A stretch of 25,822 nt of DNA from a virus (Duplodnaviria; Heunggongvirae; Uroviricota; Caudoviricetes), in IMG/VR virus record IMGVR_UViG_2585427774_000009, positions 1-25,822 of that record; one strand, given 5' to 3'. Position numbers and translations under genes: made by a program. Under the pieces are notes generated by a model. The model ran no database searches, had not been told where the DNA came from, and worked only from the letters and a program-made list of their open reading frames with translations. Position 1 is the first letter of the stretch; the number at the start of each line of letters is the position of its first letter. Shown here one piece after another: positions 1,009-25,822 of this stretch.

Positions 1009-1083
1009 GTCCTCTTAGTTAAATGGATATAACGAGCCCCTCCTAAGGGCTAATTGCAGGTTCGATTCCTGCAGGGGACACCA
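1009..1083 (+). tRNA. argW: tRNA-Arg (argW), 75 nt including the 3' CCA
   Basis: Sequence GTCCTCTTAGTTAAATGGATATAACGAGCCCCTCCTAAGGGCTAATTGCAGGTTCGATTCCTGCAGGGGACACCA read directly; acceptor stem GTCCTCT pairs with AGGGGAC; T-arm GGTTCGATTCC present; recognised as E. coli argW, a known prophage integration site. Confidence 0.9.
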
Positions 1084-7434: not shown

Positions 7435-7502
7435 GTTGGTTTTTCTCCACGGATTTACTGACAACCGAAGCCCTGACTGTTCCCGCAGTTGGGGCTTCAA
7501 CT
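7435..7502 (+). ncRNA. sar: Possible sar-type antisense RNA region (arc-ant intergenic, antisense to the ant ribosome-binding site)
   Basis: Established P22 biology: a small antisense RNA is transcribed opposite to ant across its translation-initiation region. Here the 68-bp arc-ant spacer contains a GAAGCCC...GGGCTTC hairpin. Ends not determined; placed by analogy only. Confidence 0.3.
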
Positions 7503-21284: not shown

Positions 21285-22784
21285 TTAAGTTCTCCGTGCG
21301 ATGGGCCTGATTGGGGCTGGTATCTTTTTCTCTTTTGGTTTTTTGATGTCGCGCATCATTTTGGCGAAGCGGCGCATCATGTATGCATAGCGAACGGCTG
21401 AGAGAACGTCGTCGTTAAGCTTGACGATTTTCCCGTTTTCATCACGGTGATAGAGGCGGAACTCCTCAAAGAATGGCTCACAGGTGTTGAATACTTTGAA
21501 GCGACCATCGAGCATCATGTCGCGCAATTCAGTGATGCCAGGCTCAACAGCATTACCGCCATCAGGCCATGTCGCATGCTCCTGTAACATCATAAATCCA
21601 GCGTCTGCATACTGCCCTTTGAGCTGCTCACCGCCGCCCTTCTCATGCTGGTTTCCGTCATGAGGCCATGCGGTTGGCACTTTATGCGCCCATGATTTAA
21701 CGGCTCCCCACGCCTGAACGGCTGTTTTTTCTTTCGCCTTCCACACGCGTGAAACGTAGATTGTGTCTGCGTCCTTATCCCACCAAAGCTGAACCTGCGC
21801 CTGTGGGTGATCCCATCCGAAATCCATCCCGCCAATTACGTAGAAGTGATCAGGGCACTCAAACGGATGACACTTAATCGTCTCTTCCGGTATCTGGAAG
21901 ATTCGACCGCTACCCATCGTAGGAATACCGCGAGCACGCGCCTCTCTCTCATGTTCAGGATAGGATGCGATGATTTGCTCTTTCTGCTCGTCGGTGTAGT
22001 GCTCAGCGTCATAGATGGTCATGTTGACCACTTTCTGCGACTTGCTGGGATTCTTCAGGAACTTGGTAACAACGTCAGACATCCCCATCAGCGGGGTAAA
22101 CGTCAGAATTGAGAATTGCCCGTATTTGTTGGTACGGGTAAGCCCTTCGCCATAAATGCTGTATGGTGGCTCTTCGTCAAACCACACGCCGTGGATTGTG
22201 TCACCCTGCCAGCGAGCGCGGCCTTGCGAGTATGGTTTGAAGTAGCAGATTGAAATGCCATCTTCAACGCCATCAGCCGTGTGATGCTTAACCAGAAGAT
22301 GATCAACAAGGTTCGGAAAGAAAGGAGACTTCTTCCAGCTAATGATGTCTTCTTTCGGTATGGAACCGTAGCCAGGTTCATCATTCTCTTCGATACGACC
22401 GCACAGGATGCGTTGAGTCGTTTTGGTTACCGTCTCGTTTGTCTCGCCGCCAATCCAGAAGACAACAGGCTCATAGAAACGCTTACCTTTCCACTCACCG
22501 CCATATTTACCATCAGCAGGATAGCCTTTTGTGCCCGGATAACGCCCTGTAAGGTGAAACGCGACTTCGGCAGCACCAGTAAATGACTTACCAAGCTGGT
22601 TACCAGCCATAAAACAGCGCTCTGGATAGTCATGCCCGGCGTCGATGAACTCACGCTGTTTGCTGTATGGCGTAAATTCATATAGCAGGTGTGTGTTCCG
22701 GTAGTTCTCTTCTTCTTCGAGTAGCTCGAGCAATTCGATTTGCTCTTCGTCGCTCAGGTTATCAAGAATCGCGTCCAGTTCCAC
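21285..22784 (-). CDS. Terminase large subunit, P22 gp2-like
   Basis: 499-aa ORF, the same length as P22 gp2; N-terminal ATPase region with a Walker-A-like GNQLGKS motif; C-terminal nuclease region; overlaps the small terminase gene. Confidence 0.9.
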
Positions 22785-23250
22785 GGTTGAATAGCTCCTT
22801 GATACGAGAGCGTCGCTTATCGCGATCTCCCTTATCAGGTGTCACGTCTTCAACTTGCGACTGCTCTTTGAGGCCCAAATCACGGGCGATGATGTTAGCG
22901 TTGAGAAGGTCAGCGGCTGCGCCAGAGAATTTCTGGTCGTAGATGATGTCTTCCGCTCGTGATGTGACGTCAGAAAAACCTTCCATTGACCGGAAGGTTC
23001 CCCATGTTTGCCTGGTGATATCAAGGAAGGTACACAATCCTGAAATAGTCATGGCTCGCATCTTAGGGACATTAGCCTTAATTATTTCTCCCTGATATGA
23101 AAATACCTTACCCTCCCATAGCGGGTTATCATCAGCCCACTCGAAGTATTCACAACAAGCAGCCCACAGCGCCTCAGGCGATTCGAATTTAGGGTTTCGC
23201 CCATGACTACTGCGGGCCTCCCAAAATCGGTTGCCCTTTGGTGCTGCCAT
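22762..23250 (-). CDS. Terminase small subunit, P22 gp3-like
   Basis: Track [43 protein letters not shown]...; the start at the third codon gives 162 aa, matching P22 gp3 from memory, including the conserved C-terminus [24 protein letters not shown]. Confidence 0.85.
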
Positions 23251-23285
23251 ATTCATCTCACTTAATTGTTATTTCAGGTTGAGCA

Positions 23286-23528
23286 TCATGCTCCGGTAGT
23301 GAACAGGTCTAACGCTTCCTTCGATTTACGCACCGCTTCGATAGTGCGGGTCGTGATATCTGAATTAGCGCCACCTGACTGGAAGTGAATTTTGAATAGC
23401 TCAAGCTTCAGCTCGTCAGTACCAATGAACTGAAATGCTTCTTCTGCGGCTGCGTTCTGGTTCATGACCAGTTTGTAAATCTCTAACTGGAATTTCTGTT
23501 CTTCAGTCATGGGAATAATCTCTGCCAT
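23286..23528 (-). CDS. Hypothetical 80-aa protein (position and size of P22 orf80)
   Basis: 80-aa ORF directly upstream of the small terminase gene; I recall an orf80 at this position in P22 but cannot verify sequence identity. Confidence 0.5.
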   Translation of the reverse strand: MAEIIPMTEEQKFQLEIYKLVMNQNAAAEEAFQFIGTDELKLELFKIHFQSGGANSDITTRTIEAVRKSKEALDLFTTGA

Positions 23529-23774
23529 TGTTGGCTCCGTTTATCCGTTAAAAGGGATATCAGTTAAGTTATCCCGTGTAGGGTATAAGCCATTGTCGAG
23601 ACCATTCATTGAATGGCCTCTGCAATAACCGATGTCTTTCCATCAGTCCGCCACCACAAAGATCTTTTTTGCCATAAGGCTGGAGGTTCATCTTTCAGTG
23701 GCTGCCAGTGTTATTTCCCCACTTACTGGCTTGGGTTGTTTCGCTGTACTGCCGTTAATTGGTGAGTCCGGGGA

Positions 23775-24260
23775 TTATTTCAGTTCGTTACCTGGCATTT
23801 CTTTTAGCTCTTTCAAATGACAACGATTGAGGCTAAACCACTCCCCGTGCGACCTATAGTTGTAATATTTTTGGTGCAATTTGGTTTCAAGCTCTCTATC
23901 GGCCGGAATCTTTGCAATTAGATTTAGCTTCCCACCACTCATGCGAGATATCTCTGAAATCCGTTTATTAACCCTGCGACTAAACCCTATTTTTGTTAGC
24001 CCACTATCTTCAGCATGCAGAACGTACACATATGATTTTTGCGAAGCACTGGGTGCGACTTTGTTGTAATTAATCATGTCAAACATGAAGCCTTGCTTTA
24101 GCAAAGTTTCAAAAAAGATAGAATTAACACACCCATTCCTTCTCAGCTCTGCACTTAGCTTGTCAATTTCCTCTATGATGTCTCCAGACCCCTTTCCACT
24201 TATAAGAAAATCTTGGTACATGCGACCAATTCTTGAGGTAATTTCAACAAAGTTATTCAT
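23775..24260 (-). CDS. T5orf172-like (GIY-YIG-related) domain protein with a short N-terminal extension
   Basis: 161-aa ORF; C-terminal part SYVYVLHAEDSGLTKIGFS.R...RISEISR....KLNLIAKIPADRELETKLHQKYYNYRSHGEWFSL fits the T5orf172 pattern (YVY.L...g..KIG.T......R.......E..lH.......GEWF) as I recall it; AT-rich coding sequence. Confidence 0.6.
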   Translation of the reverse strand: MNNFVEITSRIGRMYQDFLISGKGSGDIIEEIDKLSAELRRNGCVNSIFFETLLKQGFMFDMINYNKVAPSASQKSYVYVLHAEDSGLTKIGFSRRVNKRISEISRMSGGKLNLIAKIPADRELETKLHQKYYNYRSHGEWFSLNRCHLKELKEMPGNELK

Positions 24261-24403
24261 AGCGTTTACCTTTTAGAAAGATGAGCCTGTTCGCACAGAA
24301 AAGCCGCCCCGAGATGGTCGCTACCATATACGGCAATTCTCAGGCTCAGCTTTCTGAAAGACTCGGGATTGTTACGCGCTGCGATGCGCGGTTTACTGCA
24401 GAT

Positions 24404-24430
24404 GTAAAAAAGCCCCGCGAATGCGAGGCT
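24404..24430 (-). terminator. Putative rho-independent terminator downstream of the lysis cassette
   Basis: Minus-strand RNA AGCCUCGC-AUUC-GCGGGGCU (8-bp stem with one G-U pair) followed by UUUUUA; read directly. Confidence 0.4.
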
Positions 24431-24604
24431 AAATCCTGGTATTTGTAATGAACTGGCTCTTATCTCAACGCAGCCCCTTACCGCGTGCCATATGCTCAAT
24501 ATCAAGCATCAGCAATGAGATGTTTAATCTGGATTCACTCCAGAAGTGATCACCACCCTGTCTACAGAGCCAGATGTGAAGGATGATGAGTAAAATTATC
24601 GCTA

Positions 24605-25042
24605 TCATCGAAGGCATTGCGTCCTGATGTATTCCTGCAGGTAGTTAACCTGCGCGGTTATCCTGTCGATTCCACTTCGGAGACGGTAATAATTGAGTTC
24701 AGCATCTGCTGTAAGTCTTGGGCTTTCTCCATCGCCCATGCTGCTGGCTCCGGTCGTTGACTTTGCACAGGTGGCGGCGACTTGCAGGCGCTTACGACCA
24801 GCAGAAACATCAGCACGGAGACTTTCGATAGTCGCGTTAGCATCAGCAAGCTCCTTTGTGTATCTGGCATCGAGTTCAGCTACATCACGTTGACGCTTCT
24901 GCATATCAGCGATGATGGATGTGGCTTTATCGCGCTGCTCTTTGTAGGTCATGGCGTTATCACGGTAATGATTAACAGCCCATGACAGGCAGACGATGAT
25001 GCAGATAACCAGAGCGGAGATAATCGCGGTTACTCTGCTCAT
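24605..25042 (-). CDS. Rz: i-spanin Rz
   Basis: 145-aa ORF with an N-terminal TM anchor ([18 protein letters not shown]) and a periplasmic coiled-coil; start overlaps the endolysin stop; contains the embedded Rz1 frame. Confidence 0.85.
24658..24843 (-). CDS. Rz1: o-spanin Rz1 (lipoprotein), embedded in the +1 frame of Rz
   Basis: Embedded ORF; the chosen start gives [20 protein letters not shown], a lipoprotein signal peptide with a lipobox Cys, followed by a Pro-rich mature region ([16 protein letters not shown]); start codon choice uncertain. Confidence 0.65.
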
Positions 25043-25515
25043 ACCTCAATCTCTCTGACCGTTCCGCCTGCTTCTTTGAATTTTGCAATCAGGCTGTCAG
25101 CCTTATGCTCGAACTGACCATAACCAGCGCCCGGCAGTGAAGCCCAGATATTGCTGCAACGGTCAATTGCCTGACGAATATCACCGCGATCAATCATCGG
25201 TAAAGCGCCACGCTCTTTAATCTGTTGCAGTGCCACAGCGTCCTGGCTTTTCGGAGAGAAGTCTTTCAGGCCAAGCTGTTTACGGTAAGCATCCCACCAA
25301 CGGGAAAGAAGCTGGTAACGTCCGGCTGCTGTTGATTTGAGTTTTGGGTTTAGCGTGACAAGTTTGCGAGGGTGATCGGAGTAATCAGTAAATAGCTCTC
25401 CGCCTACAATGACGTCATAACCATGATTTCTGGTTTTCTGCCGTCCGTTATCAGTTCCCTCTGACCACGCCAGCATATCGAGGAACGCCTTACGTTGATT
25501 ATTGATTTCCACCAT
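25039..25515 (-). CDS. R: Endolysin R (lambda-type lytic transglycosylase)
   Basis: 158-aa [42 protein letters not shown]..., essentially identical to lambda R as I recall it. Confidence 0.9.
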
Positions 25516-25822
25516 CTTCTACTCCGGCTTTTTTAGCAGCGAAGCGTTTGATAAGCGAACCAATCGAGTCAGTGCCGATATAGCCGATGAACACGCTCGT
25601 TATATAAGCGAGATTGCTACTTAGTCCGGCGAAGTCGAGAAGGTCACGAATGAACCAGGCGATAATGGCGCACATCGTTGCGTCGATTACTGTTTTTGTA
25701 AACGCACCGCCATTATATCTGCCGCGAAGGTACGCCATTGCAAACGCAAGGATTGCCCCTATGCCTTGTTCCTTTGCCGCGAGAATGGCGGCTAACAGGT
25801 CATGTTTTTCTGGCATCTTCAT
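25499..25822 (-). CDS. S: Holin S (lambda S107/S105 dual-start holin)
   Basis: 107-aa [37 protein letters not shown]..., matching lambda S including the Met1-Lys2-Met3 dual start; the start codon is the last three bases of the window. Confidence 0.9.

Follow-up and report, generated by a model that had tools for sequence, protein, structure and literature searches.

The stretch at positions 23288-25819 of the analyzed DNA (the window, 25,822 nucleotides in all) belongs, with a probability that we put at about 0.8, to the late operon of a P22-like (Lederbergvirus-type) prophage, of which it is the variable "post-lysis" segment, arranged essentially as in the phages epsilon34 and g341c and in an Escherichia coli W prophage. 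This stretch is an ordinary, already annotated patchwork; its small open reading frame (ORF) and terminator are real but not new, and both of these features, together with the lysis-region mosaicism of P22-like phages, are already present in public annotations. The most interesting feature of the region is a conserved, folded RNA leader that precedes an exchangeable regulator gene. The features are as follows:

25499-25822, minus strand: holin S, 107 aa, lambda type (Pfam Phage_holin_3_1, 2.4e-30)
25039-25515, minus strand: endolysin R, 158 aa, lambda type (PHROG 90, endolysin)
24942-25002, no strand: crossover zone from lambda type to P22 type within Rz (sliding 40-nt identity scan)
24605-25042, minus strand: i-spanin Rz, 145 aa (Pfam Phage_lysis, 1.4e-36)
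24658-24843, minus strand: o-spanin Rz1, 61 aa, inside Rz, P22 type (translation matches P22 Rz1)
24465-24617, minus strand: small ORF, 50 aa (47 aa from the ATG at 24608), the same as epsilon34 gp67, g341c gp62, Sf6 gene 65 and PHROG 11822
24455-24571, minus strand: predicted conserved RNA fold (RNAalifold and pair counts; nucleotide conservation)
24405-24430, minus strand: intrinsic terminator, G+C-rich hairpin followed by U6, annotated as a rho-independent terminator in epsilon34
24261-24404, minus strand: conserved structured leader, ending exactly at the cargo ATG
23775-24260, minus strand: cargo gene for a 161-aa T5orf172/MUG113 protein of the GIY-YIG clan (Pfam; PHROG 4284)
23529-23774, minus strand: conserved flank 3' of the cargo slot, with similarity to P22 present again
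23286-23528, minus strand: DUF2560 gene, homologue of P22 orf80 (Pfam DUF2560, 1.1e-43; 96% nucleotide identity to orf80)
22762-23256, minus strand: small terminase subunit, P22 gp3 type (Pfam GP3_package, 8.6e-31)

The segment is 97.6% identical at the nucleotide level to Salmonella phages epsilon34 and g341c. Genes 64-69 of epsilon34, as well as their counterparts in g341c and the E. coli W prophage, have the gene order of the window, namely a lambda-like holin, endolysin, Rz/Rz1, the 50-aa ORF (gp67), the terminator, the GIY-YIG gene (gp68) and DUF2560 (gp69). In epsilon34, two further genes, 70 and 71 (decoration protein), lie between DUF2560 and the end of the record, whereas in the window DUF2560 is directly followed by the small terminase gene, 240 nt of which align with P22 gene 3 at 87.5% nucleotide identity. 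Similarity to P22 stops at the Rz stop codon (24614) and is back at 23777, 836 bp on, and nucleotide and protein comparison with P22 detected no counterpart of 24613-23778. The preliminary description had everything downstream of the lysis genes as P22-like, which holds for the terminase, DUF2560 and the 23529-23774 flank but not for this interval. Past the lambda/P22 switch there are at least four module boundaries (24614, ~24442-24407, 24260 and 23777), and, as judged from sequence comparison, the exchangeable units between 24614 and 23777 are the 47/50-codon ORF, the intrinsic terminator, the structured leader of ~145 nt and the cargo gene.

A more far-reaching reading, to which we assign somewhat less than an even chance, is that many enterobacterial temperate phages carry, behind the spanin gene, two undescribed conserved RNA elements: a predicted multibranch fold that lies in the small spanin-coupled ORF and reaches beyond it, and a two-state leader that would gate the translation of an exchangeable set of antirepressor-like genes (Rha, KilA-N, ANT, T5orf172, HNH). 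In such a leader, a long hairpin that sequesters the Shine-Dalgarno sequence may alternate with a mutually exclusive, covarying stem, P1.

The small ORF behind the spanin gene

The ORF that the preliminary description had read on the minus strand is present in the sequence, along with its AGGA Shine-Dalgarno sequence (24625-24622, 4 nt upstream of the ATG) and the overlap of its start with the end of Rz, which amounts to 13 nt; a second ATG in the same frame, at 24608, overlaps the stop codon of Rz as ATGA. It had been called unannotated, which is true only of the ORF track behind that description: the ORF is annotated in epsilon34, g341c, Sf6, mEp460 and RefSeq E. coli W. It is a catalogued hypothetical gene that matches the PHROG 11822 profile over its full length (E = 5.1e-38, residues 1-50 on profile positions 1-50 of 50), and 66 close clusters were found. 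No Pfam family (E <= 0.01) or PADLOC entry matches it, and no description of it was found in the literature.

The ORF immediately follows the i-spanin gene in epsilon34, Sf6, mEp460 and E. coli W. Diverged relatives of 44-47 aa (~47-67% identity), each with its own Shine-Dalgarno sequence, directly follow spanins of the Rz type or the DUF2514 type; in the two longer contigs, L138 and L139, the spanin is of the DUF2514 type, and further diverged copies outside these two were found by sequence only. The ORF is thus conserved in other prophages and, therefore, the objection anticipated in the preliminary description, that it might lack conservation, falls away. In Sf6, the same ORF directly follows Rz and overlaps its end, but similarity to the window ends ~23 nt past the ORF stop (24442), a hairpin without a U-run stands in place of the terminator, and a different gene (66) comes next.

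From the placement of its relatives behind different spanin genes, together with apparent purifying selection on their hydrophobic N-terminus, the ORF is probably a real small gene. In the first 10 codons, pN/pS is 0-0.3 among the copies of the Kluyvera/Citrobacter/Klebsiella type (5 synonymous and 0 non-synonymous changes between contig L136 and Kluyvera) and 0.4-1.2 when the window or the second Kluyvera copy is one of the sequences compared; over the remaining codons it is 0.5-1.0. The close E. coli family has 13 synonymous versus 20 non-synonymous changes (omega ~0.6, not significant). One phage copy contains an in-frame TAG, and one viral contig has a stop at W16.

The predicted RNA fold overlaps the 3' two-thirds of the ORF and extends 10 nt beyond its stop; it comprises a GGCUCU:AGAGCC closing stem and a hairpin (24544-24528) with covarying pairs. 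It is 96% paired, compared with 31-38% for slid controls, and three of its pairs are changed on both sides. An alternative, which we regard as unlikely, is that the 50-codon ORF is not a gene and that the interval from Rz to the terminator acts as a structured RNA in the 3' untranslated region, for example as a stabiliser, as a processing site or as a 3'-derived small RNA; in that case, the frame would stay open only because the nucleotide sequence is constrained. Such an RNA would be consistent with the conservation of the last ~20 codons, including their third positions, which runs ~25 nt beyond the stop, with the mutual complementarity of all conserved blocks, which form this one fold with its covarying central hairpin, with the A/U-rich stretch and hairpin that come after the conserved block in every lineage, and also with the pN/pS values across most of the ORF and the lack of a Pfam match. 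The N-terminal codons, however, lie outside the fold, and there the nucleotides differ while the hydrophobic peptide is kept; the start codon, the Shine-Dalgarno sequence and the adjacency to the spanin stop are retained in the diverged lineages; the length differences among relatives are all multiples of three, with the frame open in 8 of the 9 diverged lineages; and the single-sequence folding z-score is only -0.94. Constraints on protein and RNA may, moreover, coexist.

If the ORF is a gene, as we favor, it would be translated by coupling to Rz, late in infection, from an mRNA that also bears the conserved fold, and its product would be a peptide with a hydrophobic N-terminus, perhaps a lysis accessory. 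The preliminary description had called it a candidate membrane ORF. The hydrophobic N-terminus is there, but whether it makes a membrane protein is uncertain: its uncharged run is short for a membrane span, for which ~18-20 hydrophobic residues are taken as needed, with 18 residues for the 50-aa form, 15 for the 47-aa form and 13-15 among the diverged relatives. Type I toxin mRNAs of the Hok/Gef-like kind are likewise conserved and highly folded, and the small ORF within them also encodes a hydrophobic N-terminus. In contrast to Hok/Gef, the ORF of the window sits inside a late operon, directly after a spanin gene, and the searches gave no Pfam match to Hok/Gef (E <= 0.01), no Rfam antisense RNA in 23500-24700 and no evident antisense RNA gene.

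A structured leader before an exchangeable gene

The hairpin and U-run that the preliminary description had placed after the ORF are present at 24430-24405: the hairpin (24430-24411) has 8 pairs, 6 of them G-C, and a 4-nt loop, with six T immediately beyond it, up to 24405. In 90 homologous sequences, all 7 of the 7 pairs of the main helix have compensatory changes, far above chance. This terminator would stop polymerase that is unmodified by Q, and the Q-modified late transcript would read through it.

The leader that follows contains a GCGC hairpin (24390-24375), a P1 stem formed by 24367-24362 and 24313-24308, and the long hairpin (24361-24269), in which the Shine-Dalgarno sequence AAAGG is paired with YCUUU. 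The leader was found in at least 119 viral contigs. A 364-nt query that combined the ORF and the leader has partial matches in 180 GenBank phages and in 2232 of the 5426 E. coli genomes. Of 90 sequences, 88 have P1, which occurs in two compensatory forms (CCCGAG:CTCGGG and CGAGAG:CTCTCG), a covariation that is essentially one between two sequence classes. In the structure test, 93.5% of the cells are paired, compared with 36-50% in slid controls, and 13 pairs are changed on both sides; no shuffle out of 500 attained this. The leader is so conserved that most pairs of the long hairpin never vary; this hairpin is 97.4% paired on the sense strand versus 92.9% on the antisense strand, the single changes in it are G-U compatible on the sense strand only, and the inner hairpin of the leader loses a whole base pair. 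Four leader variants that were folded adopt the same fold, with the Shine-Dalgarno sequence paired in all of them; the folding z-scores are modest (-1.5 to -2.8). Taken as a structural model, the leader is predicted to sequester the Shine-Dalgarno sequence of an exchangeable cargo gene. It would control the translation of whichever cargo follows, switching between the long hairpin, which would hide the Shine-Dalgarno sequence, and the alternative P1 pairing, which would free it.

Leaders that sequester the Shine-Dalgarno sequence include RNA thermometers, the expression platforms of riboswitches and the RNase III-processed leaders of phages, such as that of lambda N. Common to these and the window leader are a hairpin that pairs the Shine-Dalgarno sequence with an upstream anti-Shine-Dalgarno sequence and an alternative pairing that would free it; the window leader differs in having no Rfam match and in that one leader serves many unrelated cargo genes. 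For the leader and the ORF region, no Rfam 15 family reached the gathering score in the whole window or E <= 5 in 23500-24700, the only weak matches being AbsR28, which covers the terminator hairpin alone, and a partial Proteo-phage-1. No convincing IHF or LexA box was seen in the leader by eye, and no description of the leader was found in the literature.

Several other identities were considered for the leader and rejected. No Rfam match supports IsrK, the leader of anrP in Gifsy-1, or the EHEC anti-sRNAs, and the place of the latter is not behind Rz but ahead of the lysis genes, at the PR' moron site. Two ORFs that other records place in the leader, g341c gene 63 (sense) and SPN3UB_0070 (antisense; 24281-24448 on the plus strand of the window), were rejected because any frame is scrambled by the six indels, each of one or two bases (net -1), that separate the two leader classes.

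The gene behind the leader is bounded exactly by its own ATG and stop and occupies the slot in which P22 and phi80 carry rha; elsewhere, the cargo behind the same leader is Rha, KilA-N, ANT or HNH. The protein matches MUG113 (4.2e-13, 50.1 bits, cut-off 22.3) and T5orf172 (1.1e-9, 39.2 bits, cut-off 20) and is named "GIY-YIG nuclease family protein" in RefSeq; PADLOC gave only a weak PDC-S57 match (E = 4e-4). The G+C content of the gene, 38-41% versus ~50% in the flanks, fits a foreign origin. A scan of the minus strand over 23200-25822 detected no sigma-70-like promoter for the cargo, so that the source of its transcription has to be inferred. The gene does not have the arrangement of a moron, with its own promoter and terminator: no promoter was found, and the only terminator lies upstream of the gene. 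Downstream, the 3' flank aligns with P22 40158-40368 at 93%, and HSPs to it occur in 80 fetched loci, behind different cargo genes (full-length HSPs, at least 95%).

An improbable alternative is that the leader (24404-24261) and the flanks have no RNA function and are "boundary sequences", kept only as substrates for the homologous recombination that swaps cargo cassettes. The model is established for lambdoid phages, as reflected in the bsq7 annotation of Sf6; conservation ends exactly at the cargo ATG, the conserved 3' flank starts at the cargo stop, and one leader is common to 14 cargo clusters. However, recombination substrates need no internal complementarity, yet both strands of P1 change together, the inner hairpin loses its pair as a whole, the long hairpin tolerates G-U compatible changes on the sense strand only, and the fold always covers the Shine-Dalgarno sequence. 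The recombination and RNA roles are not mutually exclusive.

The lambda/P22 crossover within Rz

The lambda-type S and R genes are joined to P22-type Rz and Rz1 genes by a crossover in the first third of Rz. The holin is 99.1% identical to lambda S and 90% identical to P22 gp13; the endolysin is 98.7% identical to lambda R and has no similarity to P22 gp19. The first ~12 codons of Rz are lambda-like and the remainder resembles P22 gene 15, such that the protein is 58.6% identical to lambda Rz versus 90.3% to P22 gp15; Rz1 is annotated in epsilon34 as 66A. In the sliding 40-nt scan, identity to lambda is at least 0.95 down to ~24945 and lower beyond, and identity to P22 climbs from ~25000 and is 0.95-1.0 from ~24920 to 24629. 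The crossover zone overlaps the boundary sequence bsq7 that is annotated in Sf6 gene 63 (~24926-24973 of the window) and sits within a stretch common to both parents. The near-identity to lambda that had been proposed for the entire lysis cassette is thus borne out for S and R, which are lambda alleles, and not for Rz and Rz1, which are not.

Lambda (S-R-Rz-Rz1-bor) shares with the window S and R, at 99% protein identity, and the first ~12 codons of Rz, but has a different Rz/Rz1 allele (59%), bor after Rz on the opposite strand, and no small ORF, leader or cargo slot. P22 (15-Rz1-rha-orf80) has 90% identical Rz/Rz1 proteins and, like the window, a terminator and a GCGC hairpin ahead of the cargo slot and the 3' flank and orf80 behind it; it differs in its T4-type endolysin, in having rha as the cargo and in lacking both the small ORF after gene 15 and the leader core (P1 and the long hairpin).

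The mosaic proposed in the preliminary description stands insofar as a lambda-type holin and endolysin reside in a P22-like late operon. Its specific model, an intact lambda S-R-Rz-Rz1 cassette with one joint at 23530-24600 to P22 head genes and a novel, unannotated membrane gene at that joint, has S and R, the P22-like terminase and DUF2560 and the existence of the ORF in its favor, but it is highly improbable, being refuted in its specifics by the Rz/Rz1 protein comparison and the identity scan, which place the switch at ~25002-24942, within Rz; in addition, 23530-24600 has, in place of one joint, several module boundaries that are independent of each other, and the ORF has a PHROG and carries an annotation in RefSeq and in several phage records.

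Implications

The small ORF, probably a gene, is kept directly behind spanin genes of different families; it may encode a lysis-associated factor that has gone unrecognised or act both as protein and as RNA. One folded leader stands in front of at least 10 unrelated genes for regulators or nucleases, and it does so in well over 100 viral contigs and GenBank phages; many of the 2,232 complete E. coli genomes with a match to part of the region may be explained by it as well. If the reading with two RNA elements is correct, the post-spanin region would offer accessory genes that are expressed late a portable regulatory socket. Control of translation by the leader, if it occurs, would explain how newly acquired cargo genes immediately come under correct late-phase control and would open a way to study the Rha/KilA-N class of phage proteins, which is poorly understood.

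Gene order and joints between the lysis and terminase genes

Judged from its sequence, the window is a P22-like prophage; P22 aligns to 15.6 of its 25.8 kb with 69-96% identity, and the P22 immI sar RNA, which marks a P22-type immI region, is present at 7435-7502 (plus strand; Rfam RF00262, 95.6 bits). Near the window start lies a tRNA-Arg(CCT) gene (1009-1083, plus strand), possibly the prophage attachment site. The minus strand carries every gene of the lysis-to-terminase region.

Features of the lysis-to-terminase region
25822-25499, minus: S
25515-25039, minus: R
25042-24605, minus: Rz
24843-24658, minus: Rz1, embedded within Rz
24617-24465, minus: small ORF of 50 codons
24430-24405, minus: hairpin and T-run
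24260-23775, minus: gene for a 161-aa protein (the cargo gene)
23528-23286, minus: DUF2560 gene
23256-22762, minus: small terminase gene

The raw observations of the preliminary description are correct: the small ORF is present with the protein start read there, AGGA lies 4 nt ahead of its ATG, it overlaps Rz by 13 nt, and it is followed by a hairpin of 8 pairs (6 G-C) with a 4-nt loop and six T. The ORF had been called unannotated; it is, however, already gene 67 and gene 62, respectively, in the Salmonella phages epsilon34 and g341c, which match window positions 23288-25819 with 97.6% identity and no rearrangement, as well as gene 65 of Shigella phage Sf6, an annotated gene of mEp460, and WP_001139680.1 in an E. 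coli W prophage with identical gene order. In the epsilon34 record, the position equivalent to the window hairpin carries the annotation "Rho-independent terminator". Thus, the small ORF, the terminator and the overall arrangement are ordinary and annotated already. Of 5426 complete E. coli genomes, 2232 carry part of the 364-nt interval 24262-24625, and 414 of these carry at least 80% of it.

The mosaic interpretation offered earlier, a near-lambda lysis cassette meeting P22-like genes at one joint between 23530 and 24600, proves incorrect in its specifics. At the protein level, S and R are indeed close to lambda (99% and 98.7% identity), whereas Rz is 58.6% identical to lambda Rz and 90.3% identical to P22 gp15, and the Rz1 allele is that of P22. 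When compared over a sliding 40 nt, identity to lambda holds at 0.95-1.0 between 25822 and about 24945 and collapses beyond, while P22 identity climbs from about 25000 and reaches 0.95-1.0 over approximately 24920 to 24629; these profiles place the lambda-to-P22 crossover within Rz, at about codons 14-33 (25002-24942), in a stretch common to both parents. The Sf6 GenBank record has "bsq7; boundary sequence" at the same place, and boundary sequences are an established model. Downstream, where everything had been taken as P22-like, P22 similarity is absent between 24614, just within the small ORF start codon (24617-24615), and 23777, the stop of the 161-aa gene. For other phages the break falls near 24442 (Sf6, mEp043) or near 24407 (mEp460, HZ41), and a separate set begins to match the window at 24430. 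Given breakpoints at several sites, the single-joint model gives way to one joint in Rz and at least four further module boundaries.

A probable coding gene overlaid by a predicted RNA fold

The whole small ORF aligns to PHROG 11822, a family with no assigned function (E = 5e-38), and no Pfam family matches it. A second in-frame ATG (Met4, 24608) shares an ATGA with the Rz stop, as is classic for translationally coupled genes. Among the proteins found, close relatives with identity of at least 77% come almost only from E. coli records; across 30 distinct DNA copies, synonymous variants number 13 and non-synonymous ones 20 (omega about 0.6, not significant), with a stop in one copy. More distant relatives, of 44-47 aa and approximately 47-67% identity, were recovered from Klebsiella, Kluyvera, Citrobacter and from metagenomic contigs by an exhaustive HMMER search and species-level genome scan. 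The ORF is thus conserved in other prophages. Wherever flanks were available, these diverged relatives lie between lysis and terminase genes, and in two longer contigs (L138 and L139) the ORF is directly 3' of a spanin gene of the DUF2514 type, and the holin and lysozyme of that cassette are different ones. Each copy examined has its own Shine-Dalgarno sequence, lengths differ only by multiples of three, and 8 of 9 diverged lineages keep the frame open. In Klebsiella phage ST13-OXA48phi12.5 (L132, 1250-1600), the ORF contains an in-frame TAG and the Rz-like frame upstream is interrupted too, so this lysis region looks degenerate; the same ORF is intact in K. grimontii (L142).

The first 10 codons, which encode the hydrophobic segment, have pN/pS of 0-0.3 among the Kluyvera-, Citrobacter- and Klebsiella-type copies, with 5 synonymous and no non-synonymous changes between one diverged copy (L136) and Kluyvera, a pattern that reads as a protein-level signature. 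Beyond them, pN/pS is 0.5-1.0, and despite this, blocks of the ORF are near-invariant at every codon position. In lineages with unrelated flanks, conservation continues beyond the stop for about 25 nt (TGAGATAAGAGCCAnTTCATTACA), and the conserved blocks are mutually complementary. RNAalifold applied to 11 sequences predicts a multibranch fold that overlaps the 3' two-thirds of the ORF.

Parts of the predicted fold at 24571-24455, minus
closing stem: GGCUCU:AGAGCC
central hairpin, 24544-24528: two covarying pairs (U-A, G-C, A-U, G-U; A-U, C-G, U-G)
further stem: AUCUCA:UGAGAU
remaining parts: two more hairpins

In this fold, 96% of cells are paired compared to 31-38% for slid controls, the pairing being scored on the same sequences from which the fold was derived; 20 of the 35 pairs are invariant, and the single-sequence z-score of the region is -0.94. 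Support for a conserved RNA fold here is moderate. The main alternative, a purely non-coding element at this site, would account for such a fold, and the protein-level signature of the first 10 codons speaks for translation; we consider this alternative unlikely. Read most simply, the site holds a small coding gene with a structural constraint on its mRNA as well: translation of the ORF is probable (0.65-0.7), and the ORF is probably a genuine spanin-coupled gene with no assigned function. Because the uncharged N-terminal run comprises just 13-18 residues, the earlier label of membrane protein is uncertain.

A structured leader ahead of an exchangeable gene

In the terminator main helix, both sides change at 7 of 7 pairs with 95% pairing across 90 homologues; selection thus acts on the hairpin. 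By analogy with the lambda and P22 late operons, Q-modified polymerase would read through it, and in a lysogen it would block unmodified transcription from reaching the cargo and head genes; intra-operon terminators have been discussed for phage L as well. In Sf6-type and diverged copies (L133, L136, L138, L142, L147), the terminator is replaced by a strongly covarying 9-10-bp hairpin without a U-run, followed by GATAATG.

The DNA between the terminator and the ATG at 24260 is non-coding, leaving a leader of about 145 nt (24404-24261, minus strand). Its core is found in at least 119 IMG/VR contigs and in many of the 180 GenBank phages matched by a 364-nt query; GenBank carriers include phi80, Stx2a phages, SPN3UB, HK106 and phages of Klebsiella, Enterobacter, Hafnia, Pantoea and Actinobacillus. 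In all 10 annotated records examined, it separates the lysis genes from the next gene. Six indels, each of 1-2 bases (net -1), distinguish the two main leader classes, which rules out coding; these frame-breaking indels argue that g341c gene 63 (24274-24444, minus) and SPN3UB_0070 (24281-24448, plus) are mis-annotated. No Rfam family matches the leader, and no description of it was found in the literature searched.

In a long hairpin (24361-24269, 28 pairs), the Shine-Dalgarno sequence AAAGG is paired with YCUUU. Pairing is 97.4% on the sense strand versus 92.9% on the antisense, G-U pairs accommodate the single changes, and all four leader variants folded adopt the hairpin (z-scores -1.5 to -2.8). 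A second stem of 6-7 bp, P1 (24367-24362 with 24313-24308), occurs in 88 of 90 sequences and takes two compensatory forms, CCCGAG:CTCGGG and CGAGAG:CTCTCG, and between classes one complete base pair of an inner hairpin is lost. P1 connects the 5' foot of the long hairpin with its apical internal loop, so the two appear mutually exclusive and the RNA probably switches between Shine-Dalgarno-closed and -open states; co-transcriptional kinetics, RNase III cutting of the long hairpin or a trans-acting factor are possible triggers. In P22, what is shared is limited to the terminator and the GCGC...GCGC hairpin, located upstream of rha (39465-39575; nhmmer E = 6e-18); the core of P1 and long hairpin is lacking.

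Leader conservation ends exactly at the cargo start codon, and the genes that come next in 118 loci form 14 clusters: Phage_pRha (with or without ORF11CD3), KilA-N, ANT, T5orf172/MUG113, HNH_3 and unknown. In 80 loci with various cargo genes, the cargo stop marks the start of a conserved 3' flank (23765-23529), and one viral contig (L060, 3741-3927) has the leader fused to this flank and no cargo gene, which looks like an empty slot. The cargo gene thus forms a clean cassette. That the leader is a recombination linker only is possible; this reading, however, leaves the compensatory changes unexplained. The window cargo gene (23775-24260) has a G+C content of 38-41%, against about 50% in the flanks, consistent with a recent foreign origin of this T5orf172/GIY-YIG gene; PADLOC gives it a single weak hit (PDC-S57, E = 4e-4). 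In the conserved flank between it and the DUF2560 gene, Rfam Proteo-phage-1 (RF03044) has a weak partial match at 23700-23735 (minus; 16.8 bits versus a gathering score of 42), in which only the model ends align, including GAAAUAACACUGGCAGCC.

The most novel material in this region is the two predicted conserved RNA structures, above all the leader ahead of an exchangeable cargo gene.
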